This document shows positions 11,089-46,829 of a stretch of 64,000 bases of DNA, piece by piece. Origin of the DNA: a virus. Under the pieces are notes generated by a model. It had not been told where the DNA came from, searched no databases, and saw only the letters and a program-made list of their open reading frames with translations. The position numbers and the translations under genes were made by a program. Numbering within the stretch: position 1 is the first letter of the stretch; the number at the start of each line of letters is the position of its first letter. Location of the stretch: IMG/VR virus record IMGVR_UViG_3300025120_000019. The stretch is one strand, 5' to 3'.

Positions 11089-13035
11089 ATGAGCGAGAAA
11101 GAGTATATTGTTACACTTAAAAAAGGTGTAGATTACGATGCATTTAACGCAGAAATGACAGCATCAACTGGTGCTGGTGATATTCCAGACAGAACAGTTG
11201 ATGTAGAAAATGCTAGACCACTAAGTCAACGGAATACACATTATGCACTAACAGATGCAGAAGCTAGTACACTAAGGAGTGATAGTAGAGTTATTGACGT
11301 ACAGATACCTCCACAAGATAGAAGTGATATTGAAATTGGATTTAATGCAGTACAGACAGGTTCGTGGAAAAAAGATACTTCTTCGGGTGATAGCTCTGAT
11401 TTGAATTGGGGGCTAGTGAGAGGTGCATCAGCATCAGATCCTTGGGGATCCGGAACTTCTACAATAACATCAAACTTTAAACATACCCTTACTGGTAAAG
11501 ATGTTGATGTTGTAATACAAGACAGCGGAGTTCAAACAGATCATCCAGAATTTACCGATAGTGCAGGAATATCAAGAATTAGAAATATAGACTGGTATGC
11601 AGAATCAGGAGTGTCAGGTTCACAAAGTGCTAACCATAACAGAGATTATGACGGACACGGTAGTCATTGTGCAGGTACTGTAGCAGGCCGTACAATGGGC
11701 TGGGCAAGAGATGCTAATGTGTACTCAGTAAAAGTAAACGGATTAGAAGGTACAGGCGATAGTGGTACAGGAATAAGTATATCAGATTGTTTTGATGTTA
11801 TTAAAGGTTGGCATAATAACAAACCTATAAATCCAAAAACTGGTTTGATAAATCCTACTGTAGTAAATGCAAGTTGGGGATATAGTGGTCAGAGGAGTTC
11901 AGATCCATCAGCAGGAGTATTTAGAGGTAACGCATGGACATGGGCAGAATACGGTAGTAGTGATAACAACGCTTGGGCAAATGTTGGAGTTGTTCCTGTA
12001 GTATCTGGTTTAAACAGAAAAATAAATGTACGAGTAGCAAGTGTTGATGCAGACTTACAAGAATGTATAGATGCTGGTATTATATTTTGTATTGCGGCTG
12101 GTAACAGTTATTACTACATAGACATTGATAGTGGACCAAACTGGAATGACACAGCCGACTTTGGTAGTGGACAAGAGTATTTGTTTAGAGGAAGTTCTCC
12201 ATATGATACAGAAGCATTTATAGTTGGTAATATAGATTACACATACAAAAACGCAAAAGAACAAAAGGCAGAATCAAGCTGTGCTGGTCCAGGAGTTGGT
12301 ATTTACGCACCAGGTACAGAAATTATTAGTGTAGGAAGTACAGATAATGCTAGTAATTCAAGTACTTTACTTGCATCAGTTGGTGGTCCTAATTCTCCAC
12401 TTGATTCAAATTATAGATTAATGAAAATTTCTGGTACAAGTATGGCGTCTCCGCAAGTGGCAGGAATGGCGGCTTGTATATTAGAAGCTAATCCTATGTT
12501 AACTCCAGCACAGGTTAAAACATATATGGTTAATAATGCAAAAAGTGATTTGCTAAATGATGTTGGAAAATTTACACCAGTATCTTATACTATAGATGCA
12601 ACAAATAGTGGTTCAGGTGCTTATGTACTTAGTAATGGTACAGACCGTAATGGAGCTGTTGCAGGAAATAACGATTCAATAGCAATAAAAGTTGGTGATA
12701 CTGTAGCAATTACAAACAATTCAAGTGGATCACACCCAATGTATTTTAAGTCTGCTAATACAACAGGAACAGGAGACCAAGTTACATCACCGGCGGCTAC
12801 TGGACAAGGGTCTAGTGGTGGAGGAACTGTTTCATGGACACCAACAAAACCTGGCACATTTTATTATATTTGTGCTAATCATAGTGCAATGGTAGGAACT
12901 ATTACAGTAACAACAGATATTGTATGGGATGACCAAGATAGTATATGGGGTGGAAATAACAAATATTTCTTTAGTCCGCTTTGGGACGAAGAAGAAGCAT
13001 TCAGTTCAAATATTTCAGGTAACTTTTCTCTCTAA
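11089..13035 (+). CDS. Subtilisin-like S8 serine protease with prodomain and cupredoxin-like C-terminal insert
   Basis: Catalytic motifs VVIQDSG, DGHGSHCAG, AAGNS, GTSMASPQVAG; 'HPMYF...YYICANHSAMVGTITV' provides H/C/H/M type-1 copper ligands. Confidence 0.9.
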   Translation: MSEKEYIVTLKKGVDYDAFNAEMTASTGAGDIPDRTVDVENARPLSQRNTHYALTDAEASTLRSDSRVIDVQIPPQDRSDIEIGFNAVQTGSWKKDTSSGDSSDLNWGLVRGASASDPWGSGTSTITSNFKHTLTGKDVDVVIQDSGVQTDHPEFTDSAGISRIRNIDWYAESGVSGSQSANHNRDYDGHGSHCAGTVAGRTMGWARDANVYSVKVNGLEGTGDSGTGISISDCFDVIKGWHNNKPINPKTGLINPTVVNASWGYSGQRSSDPSAGVFRGNAWTWAEYGSSDNNAWANVGVVPVVSGLNRKINVRVASVDADLQECIDAGIIFCIAAGNSYYYIDIDSGPNWNDTADFGSGQEYLFRGSSPYDTEAFIVGNIDYTYKNAKEQKAESSCAGPGVGIYAPGTEIISVGSTDNASNSSTLLASVGGPNSPLDSNYRLMKISGTSMASPQVAGMAACILEANPMLTPAQVKTYMVNNAKSDLLNDVGKFTPVSYTIDATNSGSGAYVLSNGTDRNGAVAGNNDSIAIKVGDTVAITNNSSGSHPMYFKSANTTGTGDQVTSPAATGQGSSGGGTVSWTPTKPGTFYYICANHSAMVGTITVTTDIVWDDQDSIWGGNNKYFFSPLWDEEEAFSSNISGNFSL

Positions 13036-14040
13036 TTTGTAAAGTCTTCCAACATTATCATATTGTACTGCTCCAATATATAAATTATTTTTATCGATAT
13101 GCACACTATAACCAAACCAATGTTTTTTACTTGGTTCGGGATTAATATGTTCAATTAGTTCTTCACTAATAAAATTATATAAAAAGATACTTCCATTTTC
13201 ATTTTTATTTGCTCTATAACATCCTATGATAATATCGTTATTGTATCCAGCTATACTACCTCCAAAATAACCATTATGCGTAGTTCCTTTTAAGGTTTTT
13301 ATAAGCTTATAATTTTTATAAATGTAAACTGCACCAACATTATCAGTACTATATGCACCTATTACTACGTAATCTTGAAATGTATAAATGCTGTTGCCAA
13401 ATCCTTTTGCATCATCTGGTGCATAAATTCTATTGCTTAATTCATTATCAGCATATACATACACACGATTTGATTTATGGGCACTTATATAAAGTTTGTC
13501 ATTATCTAGGTGTACAAATCTTCCAAAATTTTCATTTTTTACAGGATTACTTCCGAAATACGAATCAATAAATTTCTTTTGTGTTAAATTATACAAATAA
13601 ACTTTACCATCTTCTCCACCTATAATATTTTTGGCATATGCACCTATAGCAAGCATATTGTTATGTAATGAAATATTATAGCCAAAATAATCTTTTTCTG
13701 ATTTGTCTTCTGCATATACAAGGTGATTAAAAACGTATTGGTTATCGTGCTTGGTGTAAATGTATACACTTCCACCGTTAAGGGCCCGTGTGCCCTGTCT
13801 ATAAGCGCCTATGCATAGGTATTGTTCGTTTATTTCTATAGCTACACCAAAACGTTCACCGTGTTGTGTGCCGTGTATAGTTTGTGTTAATACGCCATCT
13901 TGATATATTTCAACAAAGCCCGGGCCTACTGGCTCATAAGGACTTCCGCATCTGGCTCCTATAACTAAAATATTATCTAAAGTTCTAATACAGCATCCGT
14001 AAAAGGAACTAGGACTAGAGGAAGGATTTATATGATTCAT
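13015..14040 (-). CDS. FG-GAP repeat beta-propeller protein
   Basis: About seven repeats of 'FG..(I/V).....L.IGA......G.VY.Y'; probable ATG at 14040. Confidence 0.8.
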   Translation of the reverse strand: MNHINPSSSPSSFYGCCIRTLDNILVIGARCGSPYEPVGPGFVEIYQDGVLTQTIHGTQHGERFGVAIEINEQYLCIGAYRQGTRALNGGSVYIYTKHDNQYVFNHLVYAEDKSEKDYFGYNISLHNNMLAIGAYAKNIIGGEDGKVYLYNLTQKKFIDSYFGSNPVKNENFGRFVHLDNDKLYISAHKSNRVYVYADNELSNRIYAPDDAKGFGNSIYTFQDYVVIGAYSTDNVGAVYIYKNYKLIKTLKGTTHNGYFGGSIAGYNNDIIIGCYRANKNENGSIFLYNFISEELIEHINPEPSKKHWFGYSVHIDKNNLYIGAVQYDNVGRLYKLERKVT

Positions 14041-14497
14041 AATGTTCTTGTGTAAAATTAACAAAGAATGTTAAACGATAATCGTCATTGTTTTTAACGT
14101 TATGTGGTATTTGAACATTTGTAAATACTGGTTTTTTATAATCGTAACTATCAATTATGGTTTTGTGGTCATCATCATAAAATAATATTTCTGCTGATCC
14201 TTGTAGTTTACAACCTATCCTATATGTAAGATAACTTATATCTTTATGTATTACCATTTCATATTGCGGAGGCATATAAACATATTGATATCCTCTACAC
14301 TCATAAGGAAATTGTTCAAAGAAATGTTTTTTACCTCTTTTGAAACTAAAATACATTTCGTAGTAATCTCGTGTACCAAGTATTTCGCCTTGTGTATTTT
14401 TAATTTTGTACTGATGTAGGTCAGTTTCTTTGTGCCGATTAAAAACATCGAGTAGGTAATTATAGTCTACATCTATATCTAATTCTTTATAAATCAT
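14015..14497 (-). CDS. Fe(II)/2OG-type (DSBH) oxygenase-like protein
   Basis: HxD (IHKD), distal H (IPHNVKN) and R (YRLTF). Confidence 0.65.
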   Translation of the reverse strand: MIYKELDIDVDYNYLLDVFNRHKETDLHQYKIKNTQGEILGTRDYYEMYFSFKRGKKHFFEQFPYECRGYQYVYMPPQYEMVIHKDISYLTYRIGCKLQGSAEILFYDDDHKTIIDSYDYKKPVFTNVQIPHNVKNNDDYRLTFFVNFTQEHYESYKSFL

Positions 14498-15135
14498 TTT
14501 GCATCCAAGTTGTTTATTACCCAATCAATACTTTCTTTGCATAACAGGGCATTTACTATCAACCACATACTATCTCTTTTTGGGCTTGCATTAAATAGAC
14601 TGTGTTGCTTTGTAGTATTAATAAAATACATTTTAGTATGCTCAAAAAATAATGTGGTATCTTCTAGCATAAATCTACAAAAAGGTGCATTACAATTATA
14701 TATAGGCACAATTAATCTAAATGTATTTTGTATGCCTTTACTATGATCCCTATGAGGTGGAAAATAACCACCAGGACGTAATTTTATAAAATGTGTTCTA
14801 ACACACCAGTGTTTTATATCTTTTAGAAAATTATTTACAGCATTGCTTTCATAATAAATTTCTGTAGGTTTATTAAAGTCTGTTTCTCCCCATTCAGTAT
14901 TATTTTCAGCATTGTATTGTTTTAAGCTATCTAACGCTGGTCCTGGGCCAGTTTCTCCTCTTTCATTAATTATGCAAAGTCCGTCTCTCGGAATATTATC
15001 TCTAGGGTTATATTTTGTAAATTTATTATCGAATGTTTTTATATCTTGTTTTACACTACTGTCAATACTTGTAGTTAAAGGAATAAAATCTCCAAATTGT
15101 AAAATATCCCAAATACTATATTCCGAACTGTCCAT
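14494..15135 (-). CDS. Aspartyl/asparaginyl beta-hydroxylase-like Fe(II)/2OG oxygenase
   Basis: 'LRPGGYFPPHRD...FRLIVPI...FINTTKQHSLFN'. Confidence 0.75.
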   Translation of the reverse strand: MDSSEYSIWDILQFGDFIPLTTSIDSSVKQDIKTFDNKFTKYNPRDNIPRDGLCIINERGETGPGPALDSLKQYNAENNTEWGETDFNKPTEIYYESNAVNNFLKDIKHWCVRTHFIKLRPGGYFPPHRDHSKGIQNTFRLIVPIYNCNAPFCRFMLEDTTLFFEHTKMYFINTTKQHSLFNASPKRDSMWLIVNALLCKESIDWVINNLDAK

Positions 15136-15994
15136 CAATGTATCCTTTGAATTTTTTATTGATGTTTCTCCATAGATCTAACATATCAATTTGACACCAA
15201 TTATCAACAAGCCTTGGTTTTTCTATTCCTAACGGATCGTGTTTACAAGTCCAAAAATCCATAACAAAAGGCTGTACTTTACCACTCTTCTGCGGTTCAA
15301 ATCCAAAATATTCACCTTTGTGTGTTGCTGTCATACTATGGCACCCCATTAATGCCGCGTGGTTACCCTTATTGAAAATAACTTTGTTTATACCCTTACT
15401 TCCGTCTCTATCAGGAATAAACTTTAAGAATGGTTTTTGATGATATTCTTCAAACTCACCAAGTCCACGTAAATGACCAATAGCTTCAGGTCCTACCCAA
15501 CGCATATCTTTTACATCCCACCAATCTTTCATACCCATGCTACTTAAACTTTTTCCATCATATTGTCTAAGCCCTTTTATCATACCCCAAAGTGTATCCC
15601 AACAATCCTTGTCACTATATTCAACTGTTGGCATATGCACAGTTTTTTTCCTATGTGCATCTACACAACTAGGTGCTTGCCACCACGTAGTTGCTTGATA
15701 AGGAATATTAATCTTGTTTCTCCATAAAAAGTCTGTAATATCCATATTAATAAAATGTCCGTGACAATTATCGTGTTCTCCAATTTGAAAAACAAATTCT
15801 TCACCAGTTGGTTTGATATTACACCATTTTTTTGTAAATTTTCCTACTTTATAATATACTTTTGCTTTTGAAAATTTTCCATTAACAAGTGTATTGCTTT
15901 TTATATCCATAACTTCGATGGTTTCTAAATCACTAAATGATTTCCAAAATTTATTGTAATCTAAATTATTAAATGGATAACTGTAAAATGTCAT
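15116..15994 (-). CDS. Hypothetical protein (Trp/His/Cys-rich)
   Basis: 292-aa ORF coupled to neighbours; no family recognised. Confidence 0.75.
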   Translation of the reverse strand: MTFYSYPFNNLDYNKFWKSFSDLETIEVMDIKSNTLVNGKFSKAKVYYKVGKFTKKWCNIKPTGEEFVFQIGEHDNCHGHFINMDITDFLWRNKINIPYQATTWWQAPSCVDAHRKKTVHMPTVEYSDKDCWDTLWGMIKGLRQYDGKSLSSMGMKDWWDVKDMRWVGPEAIGHLRGLGEFEEYHQKPFLKFIPDRDGSKGINKVIFNKGNHAALMGCHSMTATHKGEYFGFEPQKSGKVQPFVMDFWTCKHDPLGIEKPRLVDNWCQIDMLDLWRNINKKFKGYIDGQFGI

Positions 15995-16956
15995 ATTTTA
16001 TTAACCTTAATTGTTTTATGATTTATTTTTGTTACTGTGCGTTTTAAGTCACTATACCCAAATTGTTGTGCTATTGTATATATACACTCAACTTGGCTTT
16101 TGAATGTAATCTGGTTAGGTGATATTTTTTTGTTAAAAAAATAATCTAAAACATTATGCCCGGCTATATCTCTATCGTAAGACCCTGCTTCAAAGCCCCC
16201 AGCAGGTCTGCAATTAAAATCCATATTGTACAAACAATTTTCTTCTTTTGGTTTTACAAATTGCCAAAATACAAATTTATTTGGTAGTTTTATTTTAGTT
16301 TTTAATATACGCATATAACTATCAATCTCTTGCGTATGCTCTAGATAAGGACTTACACTATCTACAGGACAGTTATCTTTATAATTTACTTTATGATAAC
16401 AGTAAGGATGCCAATAGTTATTATTGTCTACAAATGCGTGAACCGCAATAGTATAATCAATATCAATATATTTTTGTGTAAATGTATTTGGTTCCCTAAT
16501 GAATTTATTATCAGTAATATAAAAATCAGTTCCACCGCTATTGCCTGCATCTTTTTTTACAATTATTTTACTTCCGGTTGTTGGTAAAACTGGAATATTT
16601 AAATTAGAACAAATTTTATGCTGGATACTTTTATATATTATAAAATCTTTTGAAATATTATCTAAACTTTTGTTAAATATCCATCTATTCAAATTATTTT
16701 CAAGTTCAATCCAATTCTTTTGATCTCTAAAATTAATTAAATGAGTAGGCTTAATTTGATATTCTTCAAAGTATCTTAGATAAGGTCCTGCAGAAAAAAA
16801 GTCTTCTTTTTTAAAATAAATTACATTAGGAATTTGTTCACTTACAAGGCTCTTAGTTTCTTCCATATCAAAAATTAAATAGTCTTCATTATTTTTATTC
16901 AAATAACTAATTACCGATTCATATTTTTTTCTTCCACCTAAAACTATTTTTGTCAT
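15991..16956 (-). CDS. ATP-grasp fold protein
   Basis: 'IIVKKDAGNSGG', 'FTQKYID' and 'YNMDFNCRPAGG' correspond to ATP-grasp VK..G.GG, QEYI and E.N.R motifs. Confidence 0.6.
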   Translation of the reverse strand: MTKIVLGGRKKYESVISYLNKNNEDYLIFDMEETKSLVSEQIPNVIYFKKEDFFSAGPYLRYFEEYQIKPTHLINFRDQKNWIELENNLNRWIFNKSLDNISKDFIIYKSIQHKICSNLNIPVLPTTGSKIIVKKDAGNSGGTDFYITDNKFIREPNTFTQKYIDIDYTIAVHAFVDNNNYWHPYCYHKVNYKDNCPVDSVSPYLEHTQEIDSYMRILKTKIKLPNKFVFWQFVKPKEENCLYNMDFNCRPAGGFEAGSYDRDIAGHNVLDYFFNKKISPNQITFKSQVECIYTIAQQFGYSDLKRTVTKINHKTIKVNKI

Positions 16957-18029
16957 TTGAACTGCTCTGCAAAAGGATCAAACTCAACACCGCATTTCAT
17001 ACTGCATACTTTTAGTTTTCCATTATTACAGCCTTTTACATTCCAACTAGATTCTATTCTATCAAATATTCCAGTCTCAAATACTCGATCTAAACCTATC
17101 CGGGCATTCAAAGATTGTTTTCCCCCTACTGCATCAATATGATCCCATATTTGTTCTATTTTTGGATCTTTATTCCACCATTTGTACATACGCCCAGCTG
17201 TCCAACAACAAGGTAACGCTAATCCTTCAGCTGTAATGAACAAACTGTTATCGGTTTTAACTTTACAATGTATTGGAACAACATCATAATAAGCCTCCAT
17301 ACTTCCGTATTTTTCTAGCAAAACATCTTGCTTGCCAAGTGCCTTATTTAGATATTTTTCTTCTGGTTTTTTTAATTTAGTAGTTTCATTTCCTTTCCTA
17401 TCAACTGCTTGATGAGATTCTTTCTTCTTACTTGTGGCTGTAATAAATCTTCCACTTTTTTTCTTTATAAATTTTTCACACCCCCATTCGTTAGCAAGAC
17501 TTTCTGCTTCTTCAACCTGATGTTCATTGTGTTTAAATATTAAAAAGTCCCATCTAGCTCTACCACCTGCATCTATAAATGCCCGCATATTACGTTCTAC
17601 ATTATTCCATACAACACCCTGTCGATATAAATGATTAGTATCTTTTAAGCCATCAACACTAAAAATTACAGCCCCCATCCTACCGAATACAGTAGCTAAT
17701 TGTCGCCACCAATCTGCACTTTTAGCACCGGCATTTGTATTCATACTCAACCACATTTTTTTATTATGTTCTCTAAAATACTTGAATATTTCTAAAGTAT
17801 CTTTTGCAACAATAGGGTCACCAAGATTTCCGCACATATACATTGTATTAAGTTGAGCTATAAAATCAGGCTTAAAAATAAATTTACAATCTTCTAAACT
17901 TAATTCGTCTAAATTTATATGCGGATTCAATGCACCACCGTTTATATTCCGGTCGCACATAGGACATGATGCTTGACAGTTTTGTGTAACTTCCAAATGG
18001 ATAGTTTTTATGTCTTGATATCTATACAT
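16953..18029 (-). CDS. Radical SAM enzyme, sub-family A (C-terminal twitch-like Cys motif)
   Basis: CQASCPMC; CGNLGDP; FSVDG; C-terminal HC...PCC...CSMKC. Confidence 0.9.
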   Translation of the reverse strand: MYRYQDIKTIHLEVTQNCQASCPMCDRNINGGALNPHINLDELSLEDCKFIFKPDFIAQLNTMYMCGNLGDPIVAKDTLEIFKYFREHNKKMWLSMNTNAGAKSADWWRQLATVFGRMGAVIFSVDGLKDTNHLYRQGVVWNNVERNMRAFIDAGGRARWDFLIFKHNEHQVEEAESLANEWGCEKFIKKKSGRFITATSKKKESHQAVDRKGNETTKLKKPEEKYLNKALGKQDVLLEKYGSMEAYYDVVPIHCKVKTDNSLFITAEGLALPCCWTAGRMYKWWNKDPKIEQIWDHIDAVGGKQSLNARIGLDRVFETGIFDRIESSWNVKGCNNGKLKVCSMKCGVEFDPFAEQFK

Positions 18030-18056: not shown

Positions 18057-18085
18057 ATTATACTGTACTTATTGGTTTTTGTCAA
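18057..18085 (-). promoter_or_regulatory. Consensus sigma70 promoter with an embedded late-type AATAAGTA (18066-18073)
   Basis: Minus strand TTGACA-17-TATAAT upstream of the 18029 start. Confidence 0.8.
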
Positions 18086-19819: not shown

Positions 19820-19820
19820 T

Positions 19821-34544: not shown

Positions 34545-34564
34545 TAAATACGTATATAATCCTT

Positions 34565-34580: not shown

Positions 34581-34603
34581 ACTTGTACTTTTTGGAAAAA
34601 AAT

Positions 34604-38252: not shown

Positions 38253-39882
38253 TAAATTGTTCCCTTAGCCAGTCAAAGTCGTTTATTTTTTTCAACGCAT
38301 CTACATTACCTCTGTTTGCACTACCATACATCATACCTTCTTTTGCACCTTTAATTGCATATTCACCAAAGGGCTTATCCTTTCCAACGGTAGACCAAGT
38401 TGTTAACCTTTCGTCAGTTTCATCTGTCTTTTGTCTATCTATAATTTTACTACTTAATTTTGCACATTCCCTAAATGCACTTTTCCATGTATTAAAAGGA
38501 TCAGTATTAAATCCAGTGATATTAGATACAAGTTGAATAGGTTTAAATTTTGCACTAATACTTGTTGTCATATCTGGCTTGTTAACGTCCATGTTTAATG
38601 TAAGTTCTCTTGGAAATAGTTTTACACCTCCGTATCCATATATTAAATTATTAACTGGATTTTTACTTCTCCAAACATGAACATGATCATACTGCCAAGC
38701 AGGTGCCTGATAATCAAAATCAAAGTCGTCTAGTATTACTGCATCTCCATCTATAATCCAAAGCATTTCTGTTGAACATAGTTTCGCCGCTTCAATATGG
38801 GCTTGATGTATTCCTTTAACTCCGTGTACTCTTTTACACTGTGGAAACCTTTTACATATTTTTTTATAATTTTCCTCAGCGTTTGGTTCTTGGTAACTTA
38901 TAAACACCATATCATAAGGCTTAGGACTACTTGCTAATTCATCATGATCTTTTTTATGTGCAAGAAACTTAAATTCCCATTCACGTGGATGTATTTTTGC
39001 ATACTTACTGCATAGTATTATACCATCGTTGTATTTGCCGTTTAAAAAAGTATGGTTAATTTGTCTATCATACTCGTTGTTGTATTCAAAATAATGATTA
39101 AAAGTAAAACTATCATCTACTTCTACGTTATCAGGTATAACATAAAACATTTCTGTTGGACTTTCAACTACAGCATTTTGATAATCAATGTAATTACTTA
39201 CATTATAAACTTGATATTTTACTGGACCACTACCAACTATATCCCATTCTTTACAATTTACAATGAATCTATAATCAATTTCCTTTTTAGTTATAGGCCT
39301 GTGTTTTGACAATAAAAACAGTCCGTTTCTATATTCTTTGCCATATACATTATGAATGAAATTATGATTTTGATATCTATCTATTTTTTCATGATGATTA
39401 ATATAAAAATTTCTTATAAATTTATTATCAACAAAAATATTTGCACTACTCATCCAAAATAAATCTGTTGTTGAATTTTGCATTGCATATTCATAATCTG
39501 CAAAAGATTCAATTTCAAAAATATCAAATGGCTTTGGGTTACTAGCTAAAATATCAACTTCTTTTTTATTGGTGTAAAATCTGTATTCTATTTCTTTGGT
39601 ACTAATGGGAGCATCTTTTGGCACCAAAGAAATACCATCATAACTGTCGCCATTTTTAAATACATGAATATACTTCTGACTCCATTCGTCTGGTGTATAA
39701 CTAAAATCAAAGTTATTATCTATCTCAATATCAGGATACACTACCCAGAAAAATTTTGTTAAAGACGTCCGTTGTGCCGTAAACAAACTATCTGCAAACT
39801 TGGCAATAGGAATTTTTTTCTTAATTGTATTATATTGTTCTTTATAAATACCTTTGTCAGCAATAAAATATACATCATACAT
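38239..39882 (-). CDS. Glycosyltransferase-like protein (GT-A, DxD) with three degenerate N-terminal repeats
   Basis: C-terminal domain 'FISYQEPNA...GVKGIHQAH..AA...WIIDGD...GYGGVKLFP...WKSAFREC'; start ATG 39882. Confidence 0.65.
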   Translation of the reverse strand: MYDVYFIADKGIYKEQYNTIKKKIPIAKFADSLFTAQRTSLTKFFWVVYPDIEIDNNFDFSYTPDEWSQKYIHVFKNGDSYDGISLVPKDAPISTKEIEYRFYTNKKEVDILASNPKPFDIFEIESFADYEYAMQNSTTDLFWMSSANIFVDNKFIRNFYINHHEKIDRYQNHNFIHNVYGKEYRNGLFLLSKHRPITKKEIDYRFIVNCKEWDIVGSGPVKYQVYNVSNYIDYQNAVVESPTEMFYVIPDNVEVDDSFTFNHYFEYNNEYDRQINHTFLNGKYNDGIILCSKYAKIHPREWEFKFLAHKKDHDELASSPKPYDMVFISYQEPNAEENYKKICKRFPQCKRVHGVKGIHQAHIEAAKLCSTEMLWIIDGDAVILDDFDFDYQAPAWQYDHVHVWRSKNPVNNLIYGYGGVKLFPRELTLNMDVNKPDMTTSISAKFKPIQLVSNITGFNTDPFNTWKSAFRECAKLSSKIIDRQKTDETDERLTTWSTVGKDKPFGEYAIKGAKEGMMYGSANRGNVDALKKINDFDWLREQFNGDL

Positions 39883-39888
39883 ATAGTA

Positions 39889-39917
39889 ATTATACAAAAG
39901 AATTTCGTATTTGTCAA
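39889..39917 (-). promoter_or_regulatory. Consensus sigma70 promoter, probably leaderless
   Basis: Minus strand TTGACA-17-TATAAT, then 6 nt to ATG 39882. Confidence 0.8.
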
Positions 39918-39948: not shown

Positions 39949-41391
39949 ATGACAGATTTTATTCCAGGCGATTCGTACCGCTTAGACATTGTAGGAGCAG
40001 ATAGCTCAATCATAATTGATAGCTGGCTTAGTCAAGTAAAAGCAAGTGTTGTAAACAAAGATGGACAACTACAAGTAGATACCACATTTGGTAAGTTGTA
40101 CGGACCAATGGTAGGAGATGTTGAACACGAAAGTGGAGATATATTACTCAATTCAGATTCAAGAACAGCATATTTTGATGTTGTAGGTAGTATTAAAAAT
40201 CAAAGCGGTGATAAAGTTTTGGATATGAATACTGGGCTACTTACTGGTAATTTAAAAGGTAGTATTGTAGATAGTAATACAAATGAATTAGTTTGGGATT
40301 CATCTACAAGCACATTTAAAGCTGATAGAATTGTTGGTGATTTTTATGGAACCTTACATGGCGAACTTGACCTAATTGGGGAAGTTGCTGGTACATTTAG
40401 AGGTAACCTGAATGGAAATACAACCGGTCATCATTATGGACACGTTACAGGAACTACAGAAGGCACACATATTGGTGAAGTTAAAAATGAAGATGGTGTA
40501 GTCACATTACACGCAAATGGCGATTTAAACGGAAATTTAAAAGGTAAAATTATTACTCCAGATGGTGATGATGTCTTAGCATATCATGATATCCTTAAAC
40601 ATTATAATTTAAAAGCAGGTATAGAACATCATAAAGATAGTAAAACAATTTTAGAATTAAATGATGATCATACTCATGCTACAATTAGGGCACACATTGG
40701 TTGGTATGATGGTACAAATGTTTTAGCATTAAAACGCTGGGATGAATCAGAAAAACCTGCTACGTTAGCTGAATATTATGGAGATGTGGTAGGTGGAGAT
40801 TATTATAGTCCTACAAAAGAACAAATGTTGAGATACAGAGATGCTACACAACTGTTAGGAACAAATAACGGACTTATTGAGATTGGCAATAATGCAACAG
40901 AAACAGTTAAAATATTTGGTGATAGTATAAACTATCATGTACAATCAAACCCAGTAAATACAACCAATCTTGCACATATAAATTATATGGCAGTAAATGG
41001 CGATGTATCTAATAAATTACCAATTAATCCTGGAGATAGTATGATGATATCTGCTGTTCATGCATGGGATGGTACAGGCTATAAAATAGGTGGTGGATTT
41101 GGATTTTTTGCTAACACCGAGGTTGTACCAGATCCAGATTTAGAAATTTATCCTACAGATTTTGGTATTACTTTAAGTGACGGAAGAACTCTACCGAGTG
41201 CTTTTTGGGATAATCCCACAGGATTAAATTTTAACGGTAAAGGTGTTTTGTCTGTTCCGATATTTCAAGCTAAAGGACACACAGAAGCAAGTAAAACAGA
41301 AGTTACTCCAACAGCTGGTATGATAATTTTTAACACAACAACTAAAAAGTTTCAAGGACATGACGGAGATAGATGGGTTAACCTTCACTAA
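39949..41391 (+). CDS. Tail-fibre-like structural protein (partial paralog of 8953..11079)
   Basis: GNLxG / GDVxG repeats; C-terminal 'GMIIFNTTTKKFQGHDGDRWVNLH' matches the 8953 protein's C-terminus. Confidence 0.7.
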   Translation: MTDFIPGDSYRLDIVGADSSIIIDSWLSQVKASVVNKDGQLQVDTTFGKLYGPMVGDVEHESGDILLNSDSRTAYFDVVGSIKNQSGDKVLDMNTGLLTGNLKGSIVDSNTNELVWDSSTSTFKADRIVGDFYGTLHGELDLIGEVAGTFRGNLNGNTTGHHYGHVTGTTEGTHIGEVKNEDGVVTLHANGDLNGNLKGKIITPDGDDVLAYHDILKHYNLKAGIEHHKDSKTILELNDDHTHATIRAHIGWYDGTNVLALKRWDESEKPATLAEYYGDVVGGDYYSPTKEQMLRYRDATQLLGTNNGLIEIGNNATETVKIFGDSINYHVQSNPVNTTNLAHINYMAVNGDVSNKLPINPGDSMMISAVHAWDGTGYKIGGGFGFFANTEVVPDPDLEIYPTDFGITLSDGRTLPSAFWDNPTGLNFNGKGVLSVPIFQAKGHTEASKTEVTPTAGMIIFNTTTKKFQGHDGDRWVNLH

Positions 41392-41977
41392 ACAAAGGTA
41401 AAACTTTTTCAGCTTCAGGCCATCTATTAGGTTTAAGTGTTTCATAAAACTTTTCTACATTAATTTTCCAAAAAGTTTGGAATGTTCCTTTATATTCTAA
41501 CTCTATAGGATCTTCTAGTACTTTTGCTTTATGAAAATATTTTGCCCAAAATAGATGAACTTTATTTTGACTACCTACGTTTCCTGTATGTGTACTAAGA
41601 TACAATGGTTTATCTCTGCCAACACCTTCGATACAAGCCGGTAACAAAAATTGTGAAGCGTGAGAATAATGTATATCAGTTTTTCCTTTAAGACTTTTTA
41701 CACGTTGTTTACCAATTAAGTGTGTAAGGACACAAGTTCTTGCCCCTATTCGATATGCGTCTTTTCCTAAAATACCAAGCTCTTGTAACTTGTGGGCAAC
41801 TACTGTGCCAACAGGATTATTATTATATAACAATATCCACATATTAGCATCTTCATATTTTTTAATATAATCAATTAATATTTCTCTACTACAGTTATTA
41901 TAAAACTTTTTTTTAAAAGCTTCTGCATAAAAATTATTTAGATCTATATCATTATTATATAATTTTATATCAAACAT
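41378..41977 (-). CDS. Putative GNAT-fold acyltransferase-like protein
   Basis: 'WILLYNNNPVGTVVAH...YRIGARTCVL...LLPACIE...LYLST' suggests GNAT topology; start ATG 41977. Confidence 0.45.
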   Translation of the reverse strand: MFDIKLYNNDIDLNNFYAEAFKKKFYNNCSREILIDYIKKYEDANMWILLYNNNPVGTVVAHKLQELGILGKDAYRIGARTCVLTHLIGKQRVKSLKGKTDIHYSHASQFLLPACIEGVGRDKPLYLSTHTGNVGSQNKVHLFWAKYFHKAKVLEDPIELEYKGTFQTFWKINVEKFYETLKPNRWPEAEKVLPLFSEG

Positions 41978-43346
41978 ATTCTTTACATAAATTAAAAAAA
42001 TCTTCCATCTCAGGAAAAACTTGTACGTGATCAACATTTCGTCTACGTCCTTGCTCTTCAAAGAAGTTATGAAAATCTTTTCTACCTTGTATAATACGTT
42101 CTAGTGGATATTCAGTACTTGCCATATAATCAACTACACGTCTAAACTTTTCATATTCAATTGTAGTAAATGCATCTTTACGATTATCATCTACGTTTTC
42201 TTTTATAAATTGTAAATGATCATACATATATGGCATATATTCTTTTGGTAAAATATTAATATCGTATTGTAATGGTTCTTTTAGATACGGAGTATCAAAC
42301 CCTAATCTGTTCCATCTATACGTTTCAACATCATTATATTTGGCACGCCATTCTAATATCTTTTCTAATAATGTCCTAAATGTTGTTACACAAAAAATAT
42401 TAAATGTTATCATTAATGTCATTGGTGCTGTAGTATTCATCATCCAGTAATCTAAATTACGCTCAAATGTTTCTATATCTAAACCATCACGTATATATTC
42501 AGCACGTTTTCCCCAAGTGTCAATGCTTGTAAACAATTTAAATCTTCTTATTTTTTTATTTACAAGTAAATCATTTACACGATTTGTAAATTTTTCTAAC
42601 TGTCTAGGTTTGCCGCCTAAGTTACTATTACAATTTAATTCTAAATCTGGTTTAGGATCAGCATCTAACATATCAAATAGTCTATACGTGCTTTGTTGAA
42701 TAGTAGGCTCACCTCCAGTGATTCTTAAAATATGCAATTCTTTACTTAGCTCTGGCCACCACTTCCAAAAAGCATCAAGATATGGATTATTTTCTTCGTT
42801 ATAAAGTTGAAACCAATCTATATCGCATCTATGGTTAGTAACCATATCATAAGGTCCATGTTGTTTGATTTCATTGTAAAATCTACTACTTGCTTTAGGA
42901 TGACAATAGCCGCAACGGAAATTGCATTCGTTACCAAAACTTACTTCCAAGTATTCCGGATTTACATCAAACGTTGCTCCTCCTTCTTTGACTGCTTTTA
43001 ACCTATGTTTGAAGAATATAGTTTGATTACGTTGTTTTCTATCACTTATATAATCTGCACCCATTGCTTCAATCTTCCAACAATAGTTACAACCACTAGG
43101 TTGTTGCCCTTTCATCATTGCTGACCGTTCGGCTTTTTTTACTTTTGTATTATGTATAGCACTTGGGTTAGTTTTAATTTCTTCAATATCTATTTTGTGA
43201 GGAGCAGGATGATAACAACTGTGTGTTTCGCCTGTTTGAAAATAGATATTAGCATGATACCATTTAGCAAAGCAAAATGTTGGTGAAATTTCTTTTGTAA
43301 TTTCATCAATGCGTTTAATTTCTTCGGATTCGGAGCGTTCTGCCAT
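41970..43346 (-). CDS. Radical SAM enzyme, sub-family B
   Basis: FCFAKW...SCYH...CNYC; SFGNECNFRCGYC; TGGEP; NSN; SID. Confidence 0.9.
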   Translation of the reverse strand: MAERSESEEIKRIDEITKEISPTFCFAKWYHANIYFQTGETHSCYHPAPHKIDIEEIKTNPSAIHNTKVKKAERSAMMKGQQPSGCNYCWKIEAMGADYISDRKQRNQTIFFKHRLKAVKEGGATFDVNPEYLEVSFGNECNFRCGYCHPKASSRFYNEIKQHGPYDMVTNHRCDIDWFQLYNEENNPYLDAFWKWWPELSKELHILRITGGEPTIQQSTYRLFDMLDADPKPDLELNCNSNLGGKPRQLEKFTNRVNDLLVNKKIRRFKLFTSIDTWGKRAEYIRDGLDIETFERNLDYWMMNTTAPMTLMITFNIFCVTTFRTLLEKILEWRAKYNDVETYRWNRLGFDTPYLKEPLQYDINILPKEYMPYMYDHLQFIKENVDDNRKDAFTTIEYEKFRRVVDYMASTEYPLERIIQGRKDFHNFFEEQGRRRNVDHVQVFPEMEDFFNLCKEYV

Positions 43347-43349: not shown

Positions 43350-44273
43350 TTACTCTCTATCTAAAAATTGCTTGCTGTTGTCACGAGCGGGATTTTGATA
43401 GACTGTTTTAAAAAATTTACTTTGGTTAGCATCTAGCGGGTTTACTGCGATAGGTAGTTCTAGTTCTTCTGTTAATAGATCGCCCAAGTCTTGTGAATAA
43501 CATTCCATATCTTCTTCTACTAACTCACCCTTTTCATTCCAATATTGATTTAAGTATTTAAAGTCACGTACATTAACAAAGTCCCAATCGGTACACATTG
43601 TCTTATATAAGCCTTCTCTTGCGCCATAAATTGCCCAACGGCCGTATTCCACATCTGCACCTACCATAAGCCAAATATACAAGCGATGTAGATTTTTCCA
43701 ATGATTTTTATTAAATTCGTCAACTGATACTCGTACACCTCTATCTAATGCCATTTTTACACCTTCGCGAAATCCTGCTCTCCATGCTTGATGCGGAGTG
43801 GCATTATTATATATATCACTATAGACTCCGTTCATTTGTATATACTGTGTATTCCAACAGAAGTCTACTTGTGCATGAGGATTATCTTCAGGTGCATTTT
43901 CGTGTGTACGCATATCTAAAACATACTGTTTAGGCCAACACTTAATTCCTCCGTTACCATAGCACAATCCATTTATATTATTTTTTGCTGTCCAACTTAT
44001 AACTTTATCAGTAAGATCAGTATTCTCACCAAAATCAATAGACTGAGAAAGAAAGTCTTGTCTAATCCTGTTATCACCATCAACTGTTATAAAGCGATCA
44101 GATTCACTTTCGTTAGCCGCGGCTTTGTGTGCGGCGTCAGATCCTTCTATACCATGTACACGTTTTGCCCATGGAACTTTTTTGCATAAGTCTGCATAAT
44201 TTTGTTCTGCATTAGGCTCATCGTAGCTTAGGTATATTATGTCATAATCAATAACACGAAACTGTTTAGGCAT
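43350..44273 (-). CDS. Glycosyltransferase-like protein (GT-A, DxD)
   Basis: 'YLSYDEPNA...RVHGIEGSDAAH.AAA...ITVDGD...YGNGGIKCWP...AWRAGFREG'; homologous to the 38239 C-terminal domain. ATG 44273 follows GAGGA. Confidence 0.65.
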   Translation of the reverse strand: MPKQFRVIDYDIIYLSYDEPNAEQNYADLCKKVPWAKRVHGIEGSDAAHKAAANESESDRFITVDGDNRIRQDFLSQSIDFGENTDLTDKVISWTAKNNINGLCYGNGGIKCWPKQYVLDMRTHENAPEDNPHAQVDFCWNTQYIQMNGVYSDIYNNATPHQAWRAGFREGVKMALDRGVRVSVDEFNKNHWKNLHRLYIWLMVGADVEYGRWAIYGAREGLYKTMCTDWDFVNVRDFKYLNQYWNEKGELVEEDMECYSQDLGDLLTEELELPIAVNPLDANQSKFFKTVYQNPARDNSKQFLDRE

Positions 44274-44826
44274 ATATTTCCTCATGATAATAACTAGAAA
44301 ACTTTCTTACAGTATATAAGCTAACACTTGTTTTGTCAAATTCAAACTTGCTATCAAACGGTATTTTTAAATCTTTTTGAAATGTTAAAGTTTTATGTAA
44401 AACATTTGGATCGTATAACTTCGTTACACTATAAACTTGTCTAGTTGGATCTATTGAAATATTTTGTGATTCGATGTACAATTTAAATTTTGTATCTAGA
44501 ATTAATTCCCAACATTTTTCTACTTGGTTTTGTCTTATTATTATTTCATTATTATCTTGTTTAATTTTAGGAATTTCATATACAAAATTATATGTATCAT
44601 GACTCTCTGCATATTGCTGGATATTTTTTAAAATATATTTTTTTTCTAAAAAATCATATTCAACTTTGTAATCTCGCAAAGATTCTGATCCTTCAGCAAA
44701 TTTTCTGACTTGCTCAAAATCAACTAATAAGTTTTCTAAATTATCATCAGGATTTCTTGCAATTCTATTAATATTGCCATTATCATCAAAACATACATAT
44801 CTATCATTATTGATTGTTACTGCCAT
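44266..44826 (-). CDS. Hypothetical protein
   Basis: 186-aa ORF in the glycosyltransferase operon. Confidence 0.75.
   Translation of the reverse strand: MAVTINNDRYVCFDDNGNINRIARNPDDNLENLLVDFEQVRKFAEGSESLRDYKVEYDFLEKKYILKNIQQYAESHDTYNFVYEIPKIKQDNNEIIIRQNQVEKCWELILDTKFKLYIESQNISIDPTRQVYSVTKLYDPNVLHKTLTFQKDLKIPFDSKFEFDKTSVSLYTVRKFSSYYHEEIYA
44311..44339 (-). promoter_or_regulatory. Sigma70 promoter internal to the 44266..44826 gene
   Basis: Minus strand TTGACA-17-TATACT. Confidence 0.6.
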
Positions 44827-45668
44827 TATATTCCCAAGTACTTCTCGTATATTGTAGTTATTCTTTCTGTGACAAAATCATTTTCAGTATAGTGAAATAT
44901 TCCACTTTGTTTATGATTTCCAATTTTTAATTGTAAATCTTCACCTAAATATGTTCCTACTCTATTTTGCCATTTATCAACTACAGATTGATCCCAATTT
45001 TGTACACGTGGTTTCATATGTATAAAACTAGGATATTTTACTCTATTATTTGTAACTTGATTTTCAACATTCATAATTTTAATAGCAATAGATCCTGATA
45101 AATCAATACTGCATTTTCTTTGATATAATCTTCCGCCAGCGTGTTGTCTATAAAATTTTTGCCAGTTATTTGTAATCATTTCTAACCACGTATAATACTC
45201 ATGAGCAAGATCACTTTTTTTAAAATAATGCAATCCAGTATAAATGTTTGGCAAATAATTTGTTGAAAATGTGTTACGATAATAATTATTAGTTACTAGT
45301 TCATTTCTATATGTATAGACTTTGTTTGTAAAAAATAATTCGTAGTTTTTTAAAAAACTAAACCAAGTTGAAATATTCTGCAACACTAGCATATCAGTAT
45401 CCATGACAATAGTTTCATCATATGGTGTAGCATGATAAATTTTCCATCTGTTTTCAATTTTCCAATCCGAGTCTTGTGCATGATCACCCCATGGAATATC
45501 TACAATATCATCAAAAATTTGTTTGTATTTTCCATTAACATTTTCATTTGTAATTAAACAGATTTTTGCATTTTCATTTGTGGTACGAATACTCATAGCA
45601 TTCAAATATGCTTGCTTTACATAATCAGCATTTGAATTTTGTGCTAACATAGTAAAATTATTGCTCAT
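44826..45668 (-). CDS. Glycosyltransferase-like protein (GT8-like, DxD)
   Basis: 'YVKQAYLNAMSI...ICLIT...FDDIV...TPYDETIVMDTD...YTGLHYFKK...FIHMK...FHY'. Confidence 0.7.
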   Translation of the reverse strand: MSNNFTMLAQNSNADYVKQAYLNAMSIRTTNENAKICLITNENVNGKYKQIFDDIVDIPWGDHAQDSDWKIENRWKIYHATPYDETIVMDTDMLVLQNISTWFSFLKNYELFFTNKVYTYRNELVTNNYYRNTFSTNYLPNIYTGLHYFKKSDLAHEYYTWLEMITNNWQKFYRQHAGGRLYQRKCSIDLSGSIAIKIMNVENQVTNNRVKYPSFIHMKPRVQNWDQSVVDKWQNRVGTYLGEDLQLKIGNHKQSGIFHYTENDFVTERITTIYEKYLGI

Positions 45669-46485
45669 TAATTACTCTCTCAAGGCTAAATTTATTCATT
45701 ACGTGTAAATTACTTCCTTTAAACTTAGTCAAAGTATATTCGCCTAATCTATCAGCTTTTTCTAGAAGTACTGTAAATTCATCATCTATAATATTTAAAA
45801 GTATATCTTTATCTATACTATAAAACTTTTTTCCAGGCATAGTGCCAACAAAGCCGCCTTCGATATATCCAGATAATATATGTACTGCTATACTAAAAGA
45901 AAAATCATTTCTATATACAGTATTTTTAAACTGATACACTCCTCTGTAATGCATATAATTATCTTTTATATGTTTTATTAAATTAAAAAATATTTCGTTA
46001 ATTTTATTTTTCTTAAAATAAATTACTGTTGCCCAGTAAAAAGGTATACTAGTGTCACTAATCCTTTTAAATTCTGATGTATTATCATGTATACCCAAAT
46101 GTGTAGCGTCATTATATAATAACAAATCTTTTTGATGATCAAAACAATTTAGCAACTTATCATTTGCAATAATATAATCTGTATCCATAACAATAGTTTG
46201 CTCATAAGGCGTTAAGTCATAACTTAATTCTCTACCAGAATTTTTAAAAGACAATACTCTCTTACCTAAACTTCCATCTCTATATGTTTTTGTATTTTTA
46301 AAAGTTTTTTGATCTAAGTTTATTACAGTATCAAAGTGCTCTTTAAGTTCAGACGTATTAACATCTGTAACTAAACTTACTGGTAAATCTAAATATTTTT
46401 TTATTCTGTTTGCACAAAAAATTGCTTGCTTAATATAGTTTATGCTTTCATTATTAAATGCAAAAAGTAATACACCTTTGCTCAT
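45658..46485 (-). CDS. Glycosyltransferase-like protein (GT8-like, DxD)
   Basis: 'YIKQAIFCANRI...VSLVTD...FDTVI...TPYEQTIVMDTD...WATVIYFKK...RNDFSFS...HVMNK'; paralog of the adjacent gene. Confidence 0.7.
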   Translation of the reverse strand: MSKGVLLFAFNNESINYIKQAIFCANRIKKYLDLPVSLVTDVNTSELKEHFDTVINLDQKTFKNTKTYRDGSLGKRVLSFKNSGRELSYDLTPYEQTIVMDTDYIIANDKLLNCFDHQKDLLLYNDATHLGIHDNTSEFKRISDTSIPFYWATVIYFKKNKINEIFFNLIKHIKDNYMHYRGVYQFKNTVYRNDFSFSIAVHILSGYIEGGFVGTMPGKKFYSIDKDILLNIIDDEFTVLLEKADRLGEYTLTKFKGSNLHVMNKFSLERVINEQ

Positions 46486-46829
46486 AAATCCATTATACCT
46501 TGCACTGATCTATTTTGCTTTAACTTATTGTACTCCATTAAATACTTATTAGAAGCTACAAAATATGTAGAATGAACATTTTTAGTAAATTCTTCTAGAC
46601 TGTCTATTGCAATAGGAATACTATTATCATCAATTAAAACAGATTCTTCTTGCTCCATAGAAAGTAAGCACTGACAAAAACTAATAAGATCTTGTGTTAC
46701 AGTAAATTGTCCACCATTAAAATAATAAATTAAGTTTTCTTTATATTGTTCATTTAATAATCTTTTTTGATTATTTAGAGTAACCATATAATTACTCATA
46801 TCTAATGCTTTTTCAAGACGTTCATCCAT
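46482..46829 (-). CDS. Hypothetical phage protein
   Basis: AGGAGA RBS; 115 aa; first gene of the glycosyltransferase operon. Confidence 0.8.
   Translation of the reverse strand: MDERLEKALDMSNYMVTLNNQKRLLNEQYKENLIYYFNGGQFTVTQDLISFCQCLLSMEQEESVLIDDNSIPIAIDSLEEFTKNVHSTYFVASNKYLMEYNKLKQNRSVQGIMDL

Follow-up and report, generated by a model that had tools for sequence, protein, structure and literature searches.

A large island of radical SAM and glycosyltransferase-like genes beside the tail genes of a phage, with counterparts in Ralstonia phage RsoM2USA and in Bdellovibrionia

What would a phage do with some 34 kb of enzyme genes set into its tail region? The question is raised by a 64,000-nucleotide (nt) stretch of virus DNA from IMG/VR record IMGVR_UViG_3300025120_000019 (the window), in which positions 13015-46829 hold an island of radical S-adenosylmethionine (SAM) enzymes, glycosyltransferase (GT)-like proteins and other putative tailoring enzymes between tail-type genes. 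A preliminary description, made from the letters of the window, proposed a virion hypermodification system, in which the GTs attach a glycan to virion proteins and the other enzymes tailor it or the protein side chains. To judge from its sequences, the island is one conserved, modular system of soluble proteins only, and we hold the chances to be evenly balanced that it works in the cytoplasm as a pathway for making, editing and transferring an unusual sugar or short glycan. Genes of the window are named by their start coordinate (for example, 30125 is the gene at 30125-31537), and + or − gives the strand.

The block 13015-46829 comprises 37 genes without gaps, as 36 open reading frames (ORFs) of at least 80 amino acids (aa) and one 73-codon gene. 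Neighbouring island ORFs mostly overlap or are spaced by 1 to 52 nt, and the sole gap of 215 nt is occupied by the 73-codon gene, so that the near-gapless packing first reported was confirmed by the ORF listing. The window, which belongs to a large marine phage not in culture, is AT-rich (G+C content, ~32%) and phage-like in content. Because none of the 36 island proteins of at least 80 aa has a predicted membrane segment, the chemistry of the island would be cytoplasmic; Pfam scans of the island proteins found no nonribosomal peptide synthetase or polyketide synthase, and together with the membrane-segment prediction they agree with the original statement that no transporter or such synthase is evident.

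Exactly 12 proteins of the island carry the motif CxxxCxxC, and all 12 match Pfam Radical_SAM (PF04055; E, 3.8e-15 to 8e-5), as the preliminary description had counted. By all-versus-all BLAST and NCBIfam they fall into three families, with seven N-terminal-twitch (N-twitch) enzymes, three enzymes of family A and two of family B. The NCBIfam scan covered six of the seven N-twitch paralogs, which score 201 to 416 bits over the full length of model NF033640 (N_Twi_rSAM; cut-off, 170 bits). These are 30125 (30125-31537, −; 416 bits), which is conserved best of all and anchors the core; 22159 (22159-23493, −; 363 bits), a core gene with an orthogroup of its own; 41970 (41970-43346, −; 300 bits), likewise named for its orthogroup; the variable paralog 34532 (34532-35905, +; 238 bits); 24189 (24189-25430, −; 222 bits); and 28013 (28013-29275, −; 201 bits), which lies between two PP-loop genes. 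The seventh, 32243 (32243-33460, −), was assigned by grouping, as it clusters with the NF033640 paralogs and has a Radical_SAM match (4.7e-12) with an N-terminal SPASM match; Pfam SPASM matches sit N-terminal of the barrel in 24189, 30125, 32243 and 34532.

Family A consists of the core orthologue 35893 (35893-36978, −; CxxxCxxC at residue 18), which has a Cys-rich C-terminal auxiliary domain, a second copy, 16953 (16953-18029, −; 65% identical to 35893), and the paralog 33453 (33453-34544, −; 30% identical to 35893, with weak Pfam and NCBIfam matches). Its invariant cysteines are C257, C276, C277, C345 and C349, and its best PDB profile matches are GDGT-MAS and the cytosylglucuronate decarboxylase BlsE (PDB 7vob; E, ~1.5e-7). 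Family B is made up of the core orthologue 20997 (20997-22127, −; Pfam, 3.8e-15) and 25964 (25964-27142, −; family B2), whose N-terminal part is MoaA/viperin-like by Pfam and NCBIfam and whose C-terminus is Cys-rich. SuiB, MoaA and viperins are the best PDB profile matches of family B (2e-7 to 1e-5), its NCBIfam matches to MoaA/viperin-like models are weak, and 25964 also weakly matches the YhhB and XyeB maturase models.

Four GT-like proteins, the number first proposed, were recovered, 43350 and 38239 as GT-A proteins and 44826 and 45658 by a GT8 profile. The core protein 43350 (43350-44285, −) has a predicted structure (pLDDT, 84.5) with a GT-A-fold transferase and a helical C-terminal domain. 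Foldseek matched this model to ThuS, SunS, TarP and WrtF (E, ~2e-4; probability, 0.98 to 0.99) and also to the chlorovirus capsid glycosyltransferase A64R (PDB 2p6w), structure comparison (VIA) gave a Z score of ~10 to GT2-type enzymes over residues 7-161, and D69 and D71 of the DxD motif are invariant. For 43350 a language-model search yielded no more than a GT2 lead of 0.87. The second core protein, 38239 (38239-39897, −), has three degenerate GT-A-like repeats, visible in the sequence, followed by an intact GT-A-like domain (residues 328-522) that is 35% identical to 43350. The paralogs 44826 (44826-45668, −) and 45658 (45658-46485, −) are GT8-like; as single sequences they fall below Pfam detection (E up to 5), and their family profile matches the GT8 glycogenin-1 (E, 8.5e-6; positions 4-108), with D90 and D92 invariant. 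Two proteins without a Pfam match belong to the same stretch, namely 46482 (46482-46829, −; 115 aa), the first gene of the GT cassette, with homologues in 10 related loci, and 44266 (44266-44826, −; 186 aa), with homologues in 20.

The methyltransferase-like protein of the preliminary description stands at the level of the predicted fold. It is 37194 (37194-38252, −), core in phages, modelled (pLDDT, 92) as a helical-repeat domain joined to a class I SAM-methyltransferase fold. Foldseek matched it to NodS, Coq5, TehB and SgvM (E, 4e-7 to 1e-6; probability, 1.00), with the oligosaccharide N-methyltransferase NodS second best overall and best by TM-score (0.70 by target). Its motif I (LCAGWYA) is conserved and non-canonical compared with GxGxG, and the fold is common also to aminopropyl and nicotianamine synthases. 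PDB profile and sequence searches returned no real match for 43350 or 37194, and a language-model atlas placed both in unnamed virus-only clusters.

Other putative decorating enzymes were retained in part. Two nitroreductase-fold proteins, 31582 (31582-32259, +; Pfam, 1.3e-3) and 23514 (23514-24167, −; Pfam, 8.2e-9), are supported by Pfam and by their paralogy (2.4e-11). The two short-chain dehydrogenases/reductases (SDRs) first listed proved to be two related short SDR-like proteins with a weak adh_short match: 25423 (25423-25983, −; partial match, 3.1e-4), which is core in many relatives at 74 to 84% identity, and 19821 (19821-20351, −), related to 25423 by an iterated hidden Markov model (HMM). 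Two of four proposed HxD..H oxygenases were kept as cupin proteins, the Asp/Arg-hydroxylase-like 19244 (19244-19819, −; Asp_Arg_Hydrox, 6.4e-9) and the hydroxylase-like 14494 (14494-15138, −; Asp_Arg_Hydrox, 7.5e-4), which an iterated HMM tied to 19244; the other two found no support.

Is the island one system or a chance assembly? Among 357 confirmed IMG/VR relatives of 30125, 80 loci (±10 kb), in which this gene is 81 to 89% identical, were kept and compared together with six loci from metagenome-assembled genomes (MAGs), 86 in all. A conserved core emerged, consisting of 30125, 35893/16953, 33453, 37194, both GT-A types, 20997 (82 to 87% identity in phage relatives), 25964, 22159, 25423 and the PP-loop family, and variable cassettes surround it, which is the arrangement of a GT and radical SAM core with variable accessory enzymes that had been anticipated. 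Homologues of 37194 were found in 64 of the 86 loci, and a ±10-kb locus holds on average 3.7 N-twitch and 2.1 family-A genes. A Pfam census of 143 accessory clusters of related islands listed 17 further radical SAM clusters, Asp/Arg and TauD hydroxylases, nitroreductases, GDSL esterases, an FkbM methyltransferase, a carbamoyltransferase, an AsnB-type amidotransferase, a UDP-glucose/GDP-mannose dehydrogenase and two nucleotidyltransferase families, including a CMP-sugar-type cytidylyltransferase; one relative (G007) has a kdsA-like gene. Relatives of 182 to 236 kb are 51 to 66% complete (CheckV, from IMG/VR), and contigs with the window's own proteins are as long as 178 kb. By its ATPase (51% identity) and its giant structural protein, the window has its closest isolates in PA5oct-type and other jumbo phages, and no isolated phage matched the left flank by megablast.

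A cultured relative carries a smaller version. Ralstonia phage RsoM2USA (MG752970.1; 344 kb) has a syntenic mini-island, ORF347-354, all of whose genes are annotated as hypothetical. Its order is tail-fibre-like ORF355, the 115-aa protein (ORF354; 36% identical to 46482), two GT8-like proteins (ORF353 and ORF352; 33 to 34%), a small ORF, a GT-A protein (ORF350; 44% to 43350), an N-twitch enzyme of the 41970 type (ORF349; 33%), a second GT-A protein (ORF348; 45% to the C-terminal type of 38239) and a methyltransferase-like homologue of 37194 (27%). It holds a single radical SAM gene versus 12 in the window, and no homologue of radical SAM families A or B, of the PP-loop proteins or of the 73-aa protein was found in the examined 15-kb stretch. 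The adjoining ORF356, ORF359 and ORF361 encode virion proteins identified by mass spectrometry (MS), and products of ORF347-354 were not among the ten abundant virion bands analysed by MS (Ahmad et al. 2021, PMC8504454). In RsoM2USA and in at least seven uncultured relatives whose loci extend far enough, the GT8 end of the island adjoins homologues of the tail-fibre-like genes 46896, 47984 and 49188, and the expected linkage to tail genes is thus kept.

A second setting is bacterial. A genome scan found 30125 orthologues in MAGs, of which contigs labelled Crocinitomicaceae, Arcticimaribacter and Neisseriaceae resemble phage contigs. A Bdellovibrionia MAG carries, on a 494-kb contig, the order GT-A, GT-A, radical SAM family C, insertion sequence (IS) element, family A and family B amid MoxR, DUF58 and SppA genes. 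Two further MAG contigs, free of phage structural genes, have orthologues of almost every part of the phage core, including 30125 (58 to 59%; 58 to 61% across Bdellovibrionia, as a sister clade), 20997 (56 to 66%), 22159 (49 to 50%), 35893/16953 (46 to 50%), 25964 (41 to 47%) and a 37194-like gene (37 to 38%; Bdellovibrionia range, 25 to 38%); one cluster (L099) adds a 25423 orthologue (41%) and three copies of the PP-loop family. Elsewhere in Bdellovibrionia, homologues of 43350 reach 36 to 43%, the C-terminal type of 38239 reaches 47 to 48% and 41970 orthologues reach 35 to 40%. NF033640 scored above its cut-off in 13 of 41 sampled Bdellovibrionia-class genomes versus 0 of 14 controls; its arrays there number up to 19 copies and occur, among other places, on a 2.66-Mb contig. 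In a quick maximum-likelihood tree the N-twitch orthogroups 30125, 22159 and 41970 each mix phage and bacterial members with 99 to 100% support (22159 clade, 99%; 41970 clade, 100%), from which it follows that the paralogs split before the system came to be shared. GT2 genes are found 0.3 to 4 kb from NF033640 arrays at five sites in three genomes (G016, G031 and G048), other neighbours of the arrays are UDP-sugar pyrophosphorylase-like genes, methyltransferases, a carbamoyltransferase, 2-oxoglutarate oxygenases, B12-radical SAM enzymes and multi-pass membrane proteins, and the clusters also hold aconitase/HMGL-like and aminotransferase genes. Wzx (Polysacc_synt), Wzy_C and PMT_2 were not found co-located with the bacterial arrays.

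Two details of these bacterial loci may be added. On the 494-kb contig the ORF that separates family C from family A (11638-12522, −, of locus L084) is IS-type transposase-like, with a zinc-finger/helix-turn-helix-like N-terminus. The largest array seen (L087-L088; G001:C1:745000-775000) has ~15 N-twitch genes in 30 kb of a 917-kb contig and includes, besides a UDPGP-like gene, methyltransferase genes of the TPMT-like and 37194-like kinds.

Transcription signals were sought as TTGACA-N16-18-TATAAT with at least 11 of 12 positions matching. The window has 13 such near-consensus sites, eight of which lie 7 to 61 nt upstream of gene starts (1183, 4745, 5929, 46482, 43350, 30125, 20997 and 16953). 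Those of the island are TTGACA-17-TATACT at 46881-46853 (24 nt upstream of gene 46482), promoter-like sites at 44339-44311 (upstream of 43350), 31626-31598 (upstream of 30125) and 22162-22134 (upstream of 20997), and a 12/12 match, TTGACA-17-TATAAT, at 18085-18057 (upstream of 16953); another 12/12 TTGACA-17-TATAAT match, at 39917-39889, lies across the TTG annotated as the start of 38239. The left part of the window codes for an exonuclease, an ATPase and a PHROG-1314 nuclease-like protein, and, as the same sites precede both, the heads of the core units share their promoter type with DNA-metabolism genes. A motif distinct from these sites, ATAAATAC, has a sequence that suggests a T4-late-like promoter. 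It is not enriched in the window (8 copies versus 9.7 expected) and is for that reason a positional hint only; six of its eight copies (at 8914, 19854, 24185, 31571, 50724 and 55276) lie 17 to 40 nt before start codons, preceding the tail and fibre genes 8953, 49188 and 54655 and also 23514, 31582 and 19244, with the copy at 31571-31578 standing just upstream of 31582. If the TTGACA-type sites are early and ATAAATAC is late, as we infer, the island would not simply be part of a late tail operon.

What pathway could these genes make up? In the glycan pathway proposed above, nucleotide-activated or acceptor-bound sugars would be edited at unactivated C-H positions by the radical SAM enzymes with their auxiliary Fe-S domains, and might be decorated further by the methyltransferase-fold protein, the cupin hydroxylases, the nitroreductase-fold flavoenzymes and the short SDR-like proteins, while PP-loop ATPases may contribute carboxylate activation or amidation. 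The two GT-A-fold and two GT8-like transferases would attach or extend the product, and the variable cassettes would diversify it between phage lineages. This reading fits best because of the gene families present, the association of radical SAM enzymes with GTs in two different genomic settings and the accessory repertoire. The nearest solved relatives BlsE, MoaA and viperin, weak matches though they are, act on nucleoside-linked substrates; the accessory census holds sugar-handling and decorating families, to which the kdsA-like gene of G007 may be added; 37194 resembles NodS in its predicted fold; and radical SAM arrays stand near GT2 genes in Bdellovibrionia.

Several observations weigh on the other side. 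The solved relatives of the radical SAM enzymes are weak and generic (E, ~1e-7) and include the peptide-modifying SuiB, NF033640 is a catalogue family without a characterised member, and no relevant paper on radical SAM enzymes with an N-terminal twitch/SPASM domain came out of a literature search. The fold of 43350 is almost as near to nucleotidyltransferases (Z, ~9) as to GTs, and the protein has no match to Pfam Glycos_transf_2 at E up to 5. Within the window neither a substrate nor an acceptor nor a gene for sugar-nucleotide synthesis was identified, the tryptophan halogenase, AMP-binding enzyme and thioesterase of the accessory census also fit natural-product pathways, and the 73-aa protein described below has no place in a simple glycan model.

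On what would the glycan be placed? We give phage structural (fibre) proteins and a host envelope glycoconjugate about equal odds of being the acceptor, which keeps one part of the original proposal, GTs acting with tailoring enzymes on a glycan, and weakens the other, virion proteins as the sole acceptor. A glycan on virion proteins such as fibres, giving a variable coat for host range, stability or defence evasion, is a tentative possibility. The flanks speak for it, being as first described: on the left lie a fibre-like protein, 8953 (8953-11079, +; Mtd_N, 3.3e-4, with a PHROG tail-fibre match), and an S8 subtilase, 11089 (11089-13035, +; Peptidase_S8, 4.7e-31, with a PHROG protease match), and on the right (46896-64000, −) follow tail-fibre/collar-like genes and a giant structural protein with PHROG tail-fibre, tail-collar and virion-structural matches. 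The island adjoins tail-fibre-like genes here, in at least seven relatives and in RsoM2USA, there beside the MS-confirmed virion proteins; all of its enzymes are soluble; two peptide glycosyltransferases, ThuS and SunS, and the capsid glycosyltransferase A64R are among the top Foldseek matches of 43350; and a fibre paralog lies inside it, namely 39949 (39949-41391, +), a tail-fibre-like protein without cysteine and with glycine-rich repeats. Homologues of 39949 occur in 29 to 40 related loci, but it is absent from islands of one type (L066) and from the bacterial versions and is thus outside the conserved core. A role confined to the virion is further weakened because the Bdellovibrionia orthologues (41 to 66%) sit in clusters without phage genes, because the operon heads of the core carry sigma-70-type promoters and the tail genes carry ATAAATAC, and because the enzymes, with 30125 at 81 to 89%, are far more conserved than fibre proteins usually are.

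The other acceptor would lie on the host. That infected cells receive the product on their lipopolysaccharide (LPS), capsule or another envelope glycoconjugate, added at the cytoplasmic face and serving for instance as a block to superinfection or a change in adsorption, is a reading that we regard as rather doubtful. It corresponds to the published reading of the GTs in pelagimyophage host-recognition clusters, GT8 being largely an LPS-core family (PMC7029224), and the early-type promoters, the kdsA-like gene of G007 and the multi-pass membrane proteins that adjoin the Bdellovibrionia arrays, as expected for an envelope product, are consistent with it. The phage island, however, has no flippase, polymerase, ligase or membrane acyltransferase, the bacterial arrays lack co-located Wzx, Wzy_C and PMT_2, and Capsule_synth genes were not found in five partial relatives.

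A product that is no glycoconjugate, namely a free nucleoside-like or other small-molecule metabolite with an antibiotic-like or signalling role, is unlikely. It would accord with the resemblance of family B to MoaA and viperin and of family A to BlsE, an enzyme of a peptidyl-nucleoside pathway, with an accessory pool that includes a tryptophan halogenase, an AMP-binding enzyme, a thioesterase, a carbamoyltransferase and TauD, and with B12-radical SAM, aconitase/HMGL-like and aminotransferase genes in Bdellovibrionia that are typical of secondary metabolism; the very high conservation of the enzymes would suit a fixed, small substrate. Four transferase-like genes are nevertheless core, an exporter or self-resistance gene is absent, and the position beside fibre genes is conserved.

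Hypermodification of DNA or tRNA bases was an alternative in the preliminary description that did not gain support, and we hold it, for example with a 7-deazaguanine-type or glycosylated base, to be very improbable. It leans on two PP-loop ATPases, 27139 (27139-28020, −) and 29272 (29272-30135, −), each with an SGGADS motif and a Cys motif; across 26 aligned sequences SGGADS and C240...C267xxC270xxC273 are invariant. The PP-loop and Cys4 motif of the two proteins first called QueC-like are thereby upheld, and their assignment to the QueC family is not: neither matched Pfam QueC (at E up to 5 only ATP_bind_3 and Asn_synthase, 0.13 to 0.19), the weak PDB matches of their profile are TtuA, NcsA and AsnB (E, 0.09 to 0.35) with no QueC structure retrieved, and in homologues from relatives the QueC model matched only at positions 1-79 of 210, the P-loop part. 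GT-A enzymes are able to glycosylate DNA bases, the Cys motif is QueC-style (CxxCxxC), the promoters are of early type and in one locus (L086) the 30125 orthologue stands amid exonuclease and ATPase genes. Against this, TGT/DpdA (PF01702) was not found in five related records (30 to 66% complete), thymidylate-synthase-like genes occur in only one of five partial relatives, and the orthologous bacterial clusters resemble glycan or metabolite loci.

The statement that no precursor is evident had overlooked the 73-codon gene (36971-37192, −), which is phage-only and ultraconserved. Its start lies 1 nt past the 37194 stop codon and its end shares 8 nt with the start of 35893; it was found in 75 of 85 searched loci at 67 to 88% identity, comes next after the 37194 homologue in every comparison of the two positions, and is also predicted by independent gene callers. 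A global protein set holds 1858 clusters of the protein, which lack a Pfam domain throughout and whose contigs are as long as 383 kb; the protein has no cysteine, and a PDB search gave only repeat artefacts against designed armadillo proteins. A complex prediction of 37194 with the 73-aa protein scored 0.00 and is not evidence either way. That this protein is the ribosomal substrate or scaffold of the radical SAM enzymes, methyltransferase and GTs, as in peptides made by the ribosome and modified after translation (RiPPs), is highly unlikely: it is wedged between 37194 and family A, its invariant FNK, WY, WY and Y are what we take to resemble cyclophane-forming radical SAM motifs, and 25964 weakly matches maturase models, but it is absent from Bdellovibrionia clusters that keep the core enzymes at 41 to 66%, shows conservation from end to end, as a folded protein would, and is accompanied by no RiPP recognition element (RRE) domain detected in Pfam scans of the island proteins.

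How does the island compare with known systems? BtrN and BlsE, twitch/SPASM radical SAM enzymes whose substrates are sugars or nucleoside sugars, combine a radical SAM core with a Cys-rich auxiliary cluster domain, as here. NF033640 differs in that its auxiliary domain comes before the barrel, and the likeness of the BlsE-type twitch/SPASM enzymes to those of the island is at the superfamily level only. A64R of chlorovirus PBCV-1 is, like the GT-A proteins here, a soluble virus-encoded enzyme, and mycobacteriophage GT genes adjoin structural genes. The virion glycosylation of chloroviruses and mycobacteriophages is not known to involve radical SAM enzymes. Mycobacteriophage virion glycosylation is among the subjects cited in PMC12619734.

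The island matches a host-recognition cluster in position and content. In pelagimyophages and cyanomyophages this cluster is a hypervariable island of the structural region beside a giant baseplate-type protein, and it holds tail fibres, GTs (GT8 being the commonest) and 'radical SAM cassettes', for which modification of the host O-chain was suggested (Zaragoza-Solas et al. 2020, PMC7029224). The radical SAM genes were not dissected in that study, and the isolates nearest to the window phage by its ATPase and giant protein are PA5oct-type jumbo phages, not HTVC008M. TARA_ERS488813_N000010, a 183-kb T4-like marine genome, has 12 radical SAM genes that were counted only as Fe-S-related (Nishimura et al. 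2017, PMC5332604), in a paper that proposed neither an island structure nor a function for them. Campylobacter phages CP220 and CPt10 are large lytic myophages with several radical SAM genes (Timms et al. 2010, PMC2853527); CP220 gave a weak family-A match (24% over half the protein), a distant relationship, and was not among the tblastn matches of 30125 (NF033640) or 43350 (GT-A). The papers of 2017 and 2020 noted phages rich in radical SAM genes without assigning a function, and neither dissected the enzymes.

It is unusual for any genome to have a radical SAM array as large as this one, and NF033640, which has no member with a known reaction, forms here a seven-copy array with at least three orthogroups common to phages and Bdellovibrionia. 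The island type is abundant in aquatic phages, with more than 350 IMG/VR contigs carrying the anchor gene and the many clusters of the 73-aa protein given above. If the enzymes do edit sugars, they would represent new radical carbohydrate chemistry and would account for a sizeable, conserved portion of the 'host-recognition' region of large marine phages. More speculatively, the permuted N-twitch arrays might be a new class of glycan chemistry in which each enzyme makes a distinct C-H edit and the product is displayed on the attacking particle or cell, so that phages and predatory bacteria would share a device for surface interaction, with the 73-aa protein, in the phages, as a dedicated scaffold or acceptor; we think this improbable. 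The cultured RsoM2USA cassette and the Bdellovibrionia clusters open the question to experiment for the first time.

The remaining genes of the island carry few recognisable domains. A Pfam search at E up to 5 on 20 unannotated proteins gave nothing usable, and labels of ATP-grasp, sulfotransferase and GNAT proteins given earlier found no support in it or in PDB searches of 15991 and 41378. The 227-aa protein 41378 (41378-42061, −) has no Pfam match, and the best PDB match of its profile, a protein acetyltransferase at E 0.93, is not significant, so that a GNAT assignment is unsupported. Three proteins without a Pfam match, 18082 (18082-18672, −), 18672 (18672-19265, −) and 20348 (20348-21007, −), belong to a variable block (18082-21007) with few homologues in the ±10-kb loci of relatives, which seldom extend so far. 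The distal variable end (13015-16956) contains an FG-GAP repeat protein, 13015 (13015-14064, −; FG-GAP_2, 4.3e-33), the 169-aa 14015 (14015-14524, −), the 292-aa 15116 (15116-15994, −) and the 321-aa 15991 (15991-16956, −; no Pfam or PDB match) in addition to the cupin protein 14494; homologues of this end are absent from the 80 IMG/VR loci, which seldom reach it, except for four of 14494.

Repeat number in 38239 may vary, because close relatives (L091-L094) carry a 443-aa form versus 552 aa here. In these TARA relatives, whose gene order is otherwise identical, the protein (7635-8966 in L091) is ~109 residues shorter, or about one repeat of ~100 aa.

Hints of the host conflict. The TTGACA/TATAAT promoters and the Ralstonia phage relative point to a proteobacterial type, and near-identical contigs (L081 and L082) are binned to Flavobacteriales MAGs (Crocinitomicaceae and Arcticimaribacter), which probably reflects mis-binning.

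The flanking genes have features of their own. The giant structural ORF (55280-64000, −; at least 2859 aa) matches virion proteins of the PA5oct group in two separate pieces, and one of the PA5oct-group proteins that it matches is annotated with a chitin-binding type-3 domain. The subtilase 11089 ends in a plastocyanin/azurin-like domain (Copper-bind, 1.9e-7; residues 524-607), an odd fusion for a phage protease that lies beside a fibre gene. The tail-region protein 47984 (47984-49168, −) has a ubiquitin-E1 FCCH domain (PF16190, 8.3e-9; residues 96-177), and its homologues adjoin the island in relatives and in RsoM2USA.

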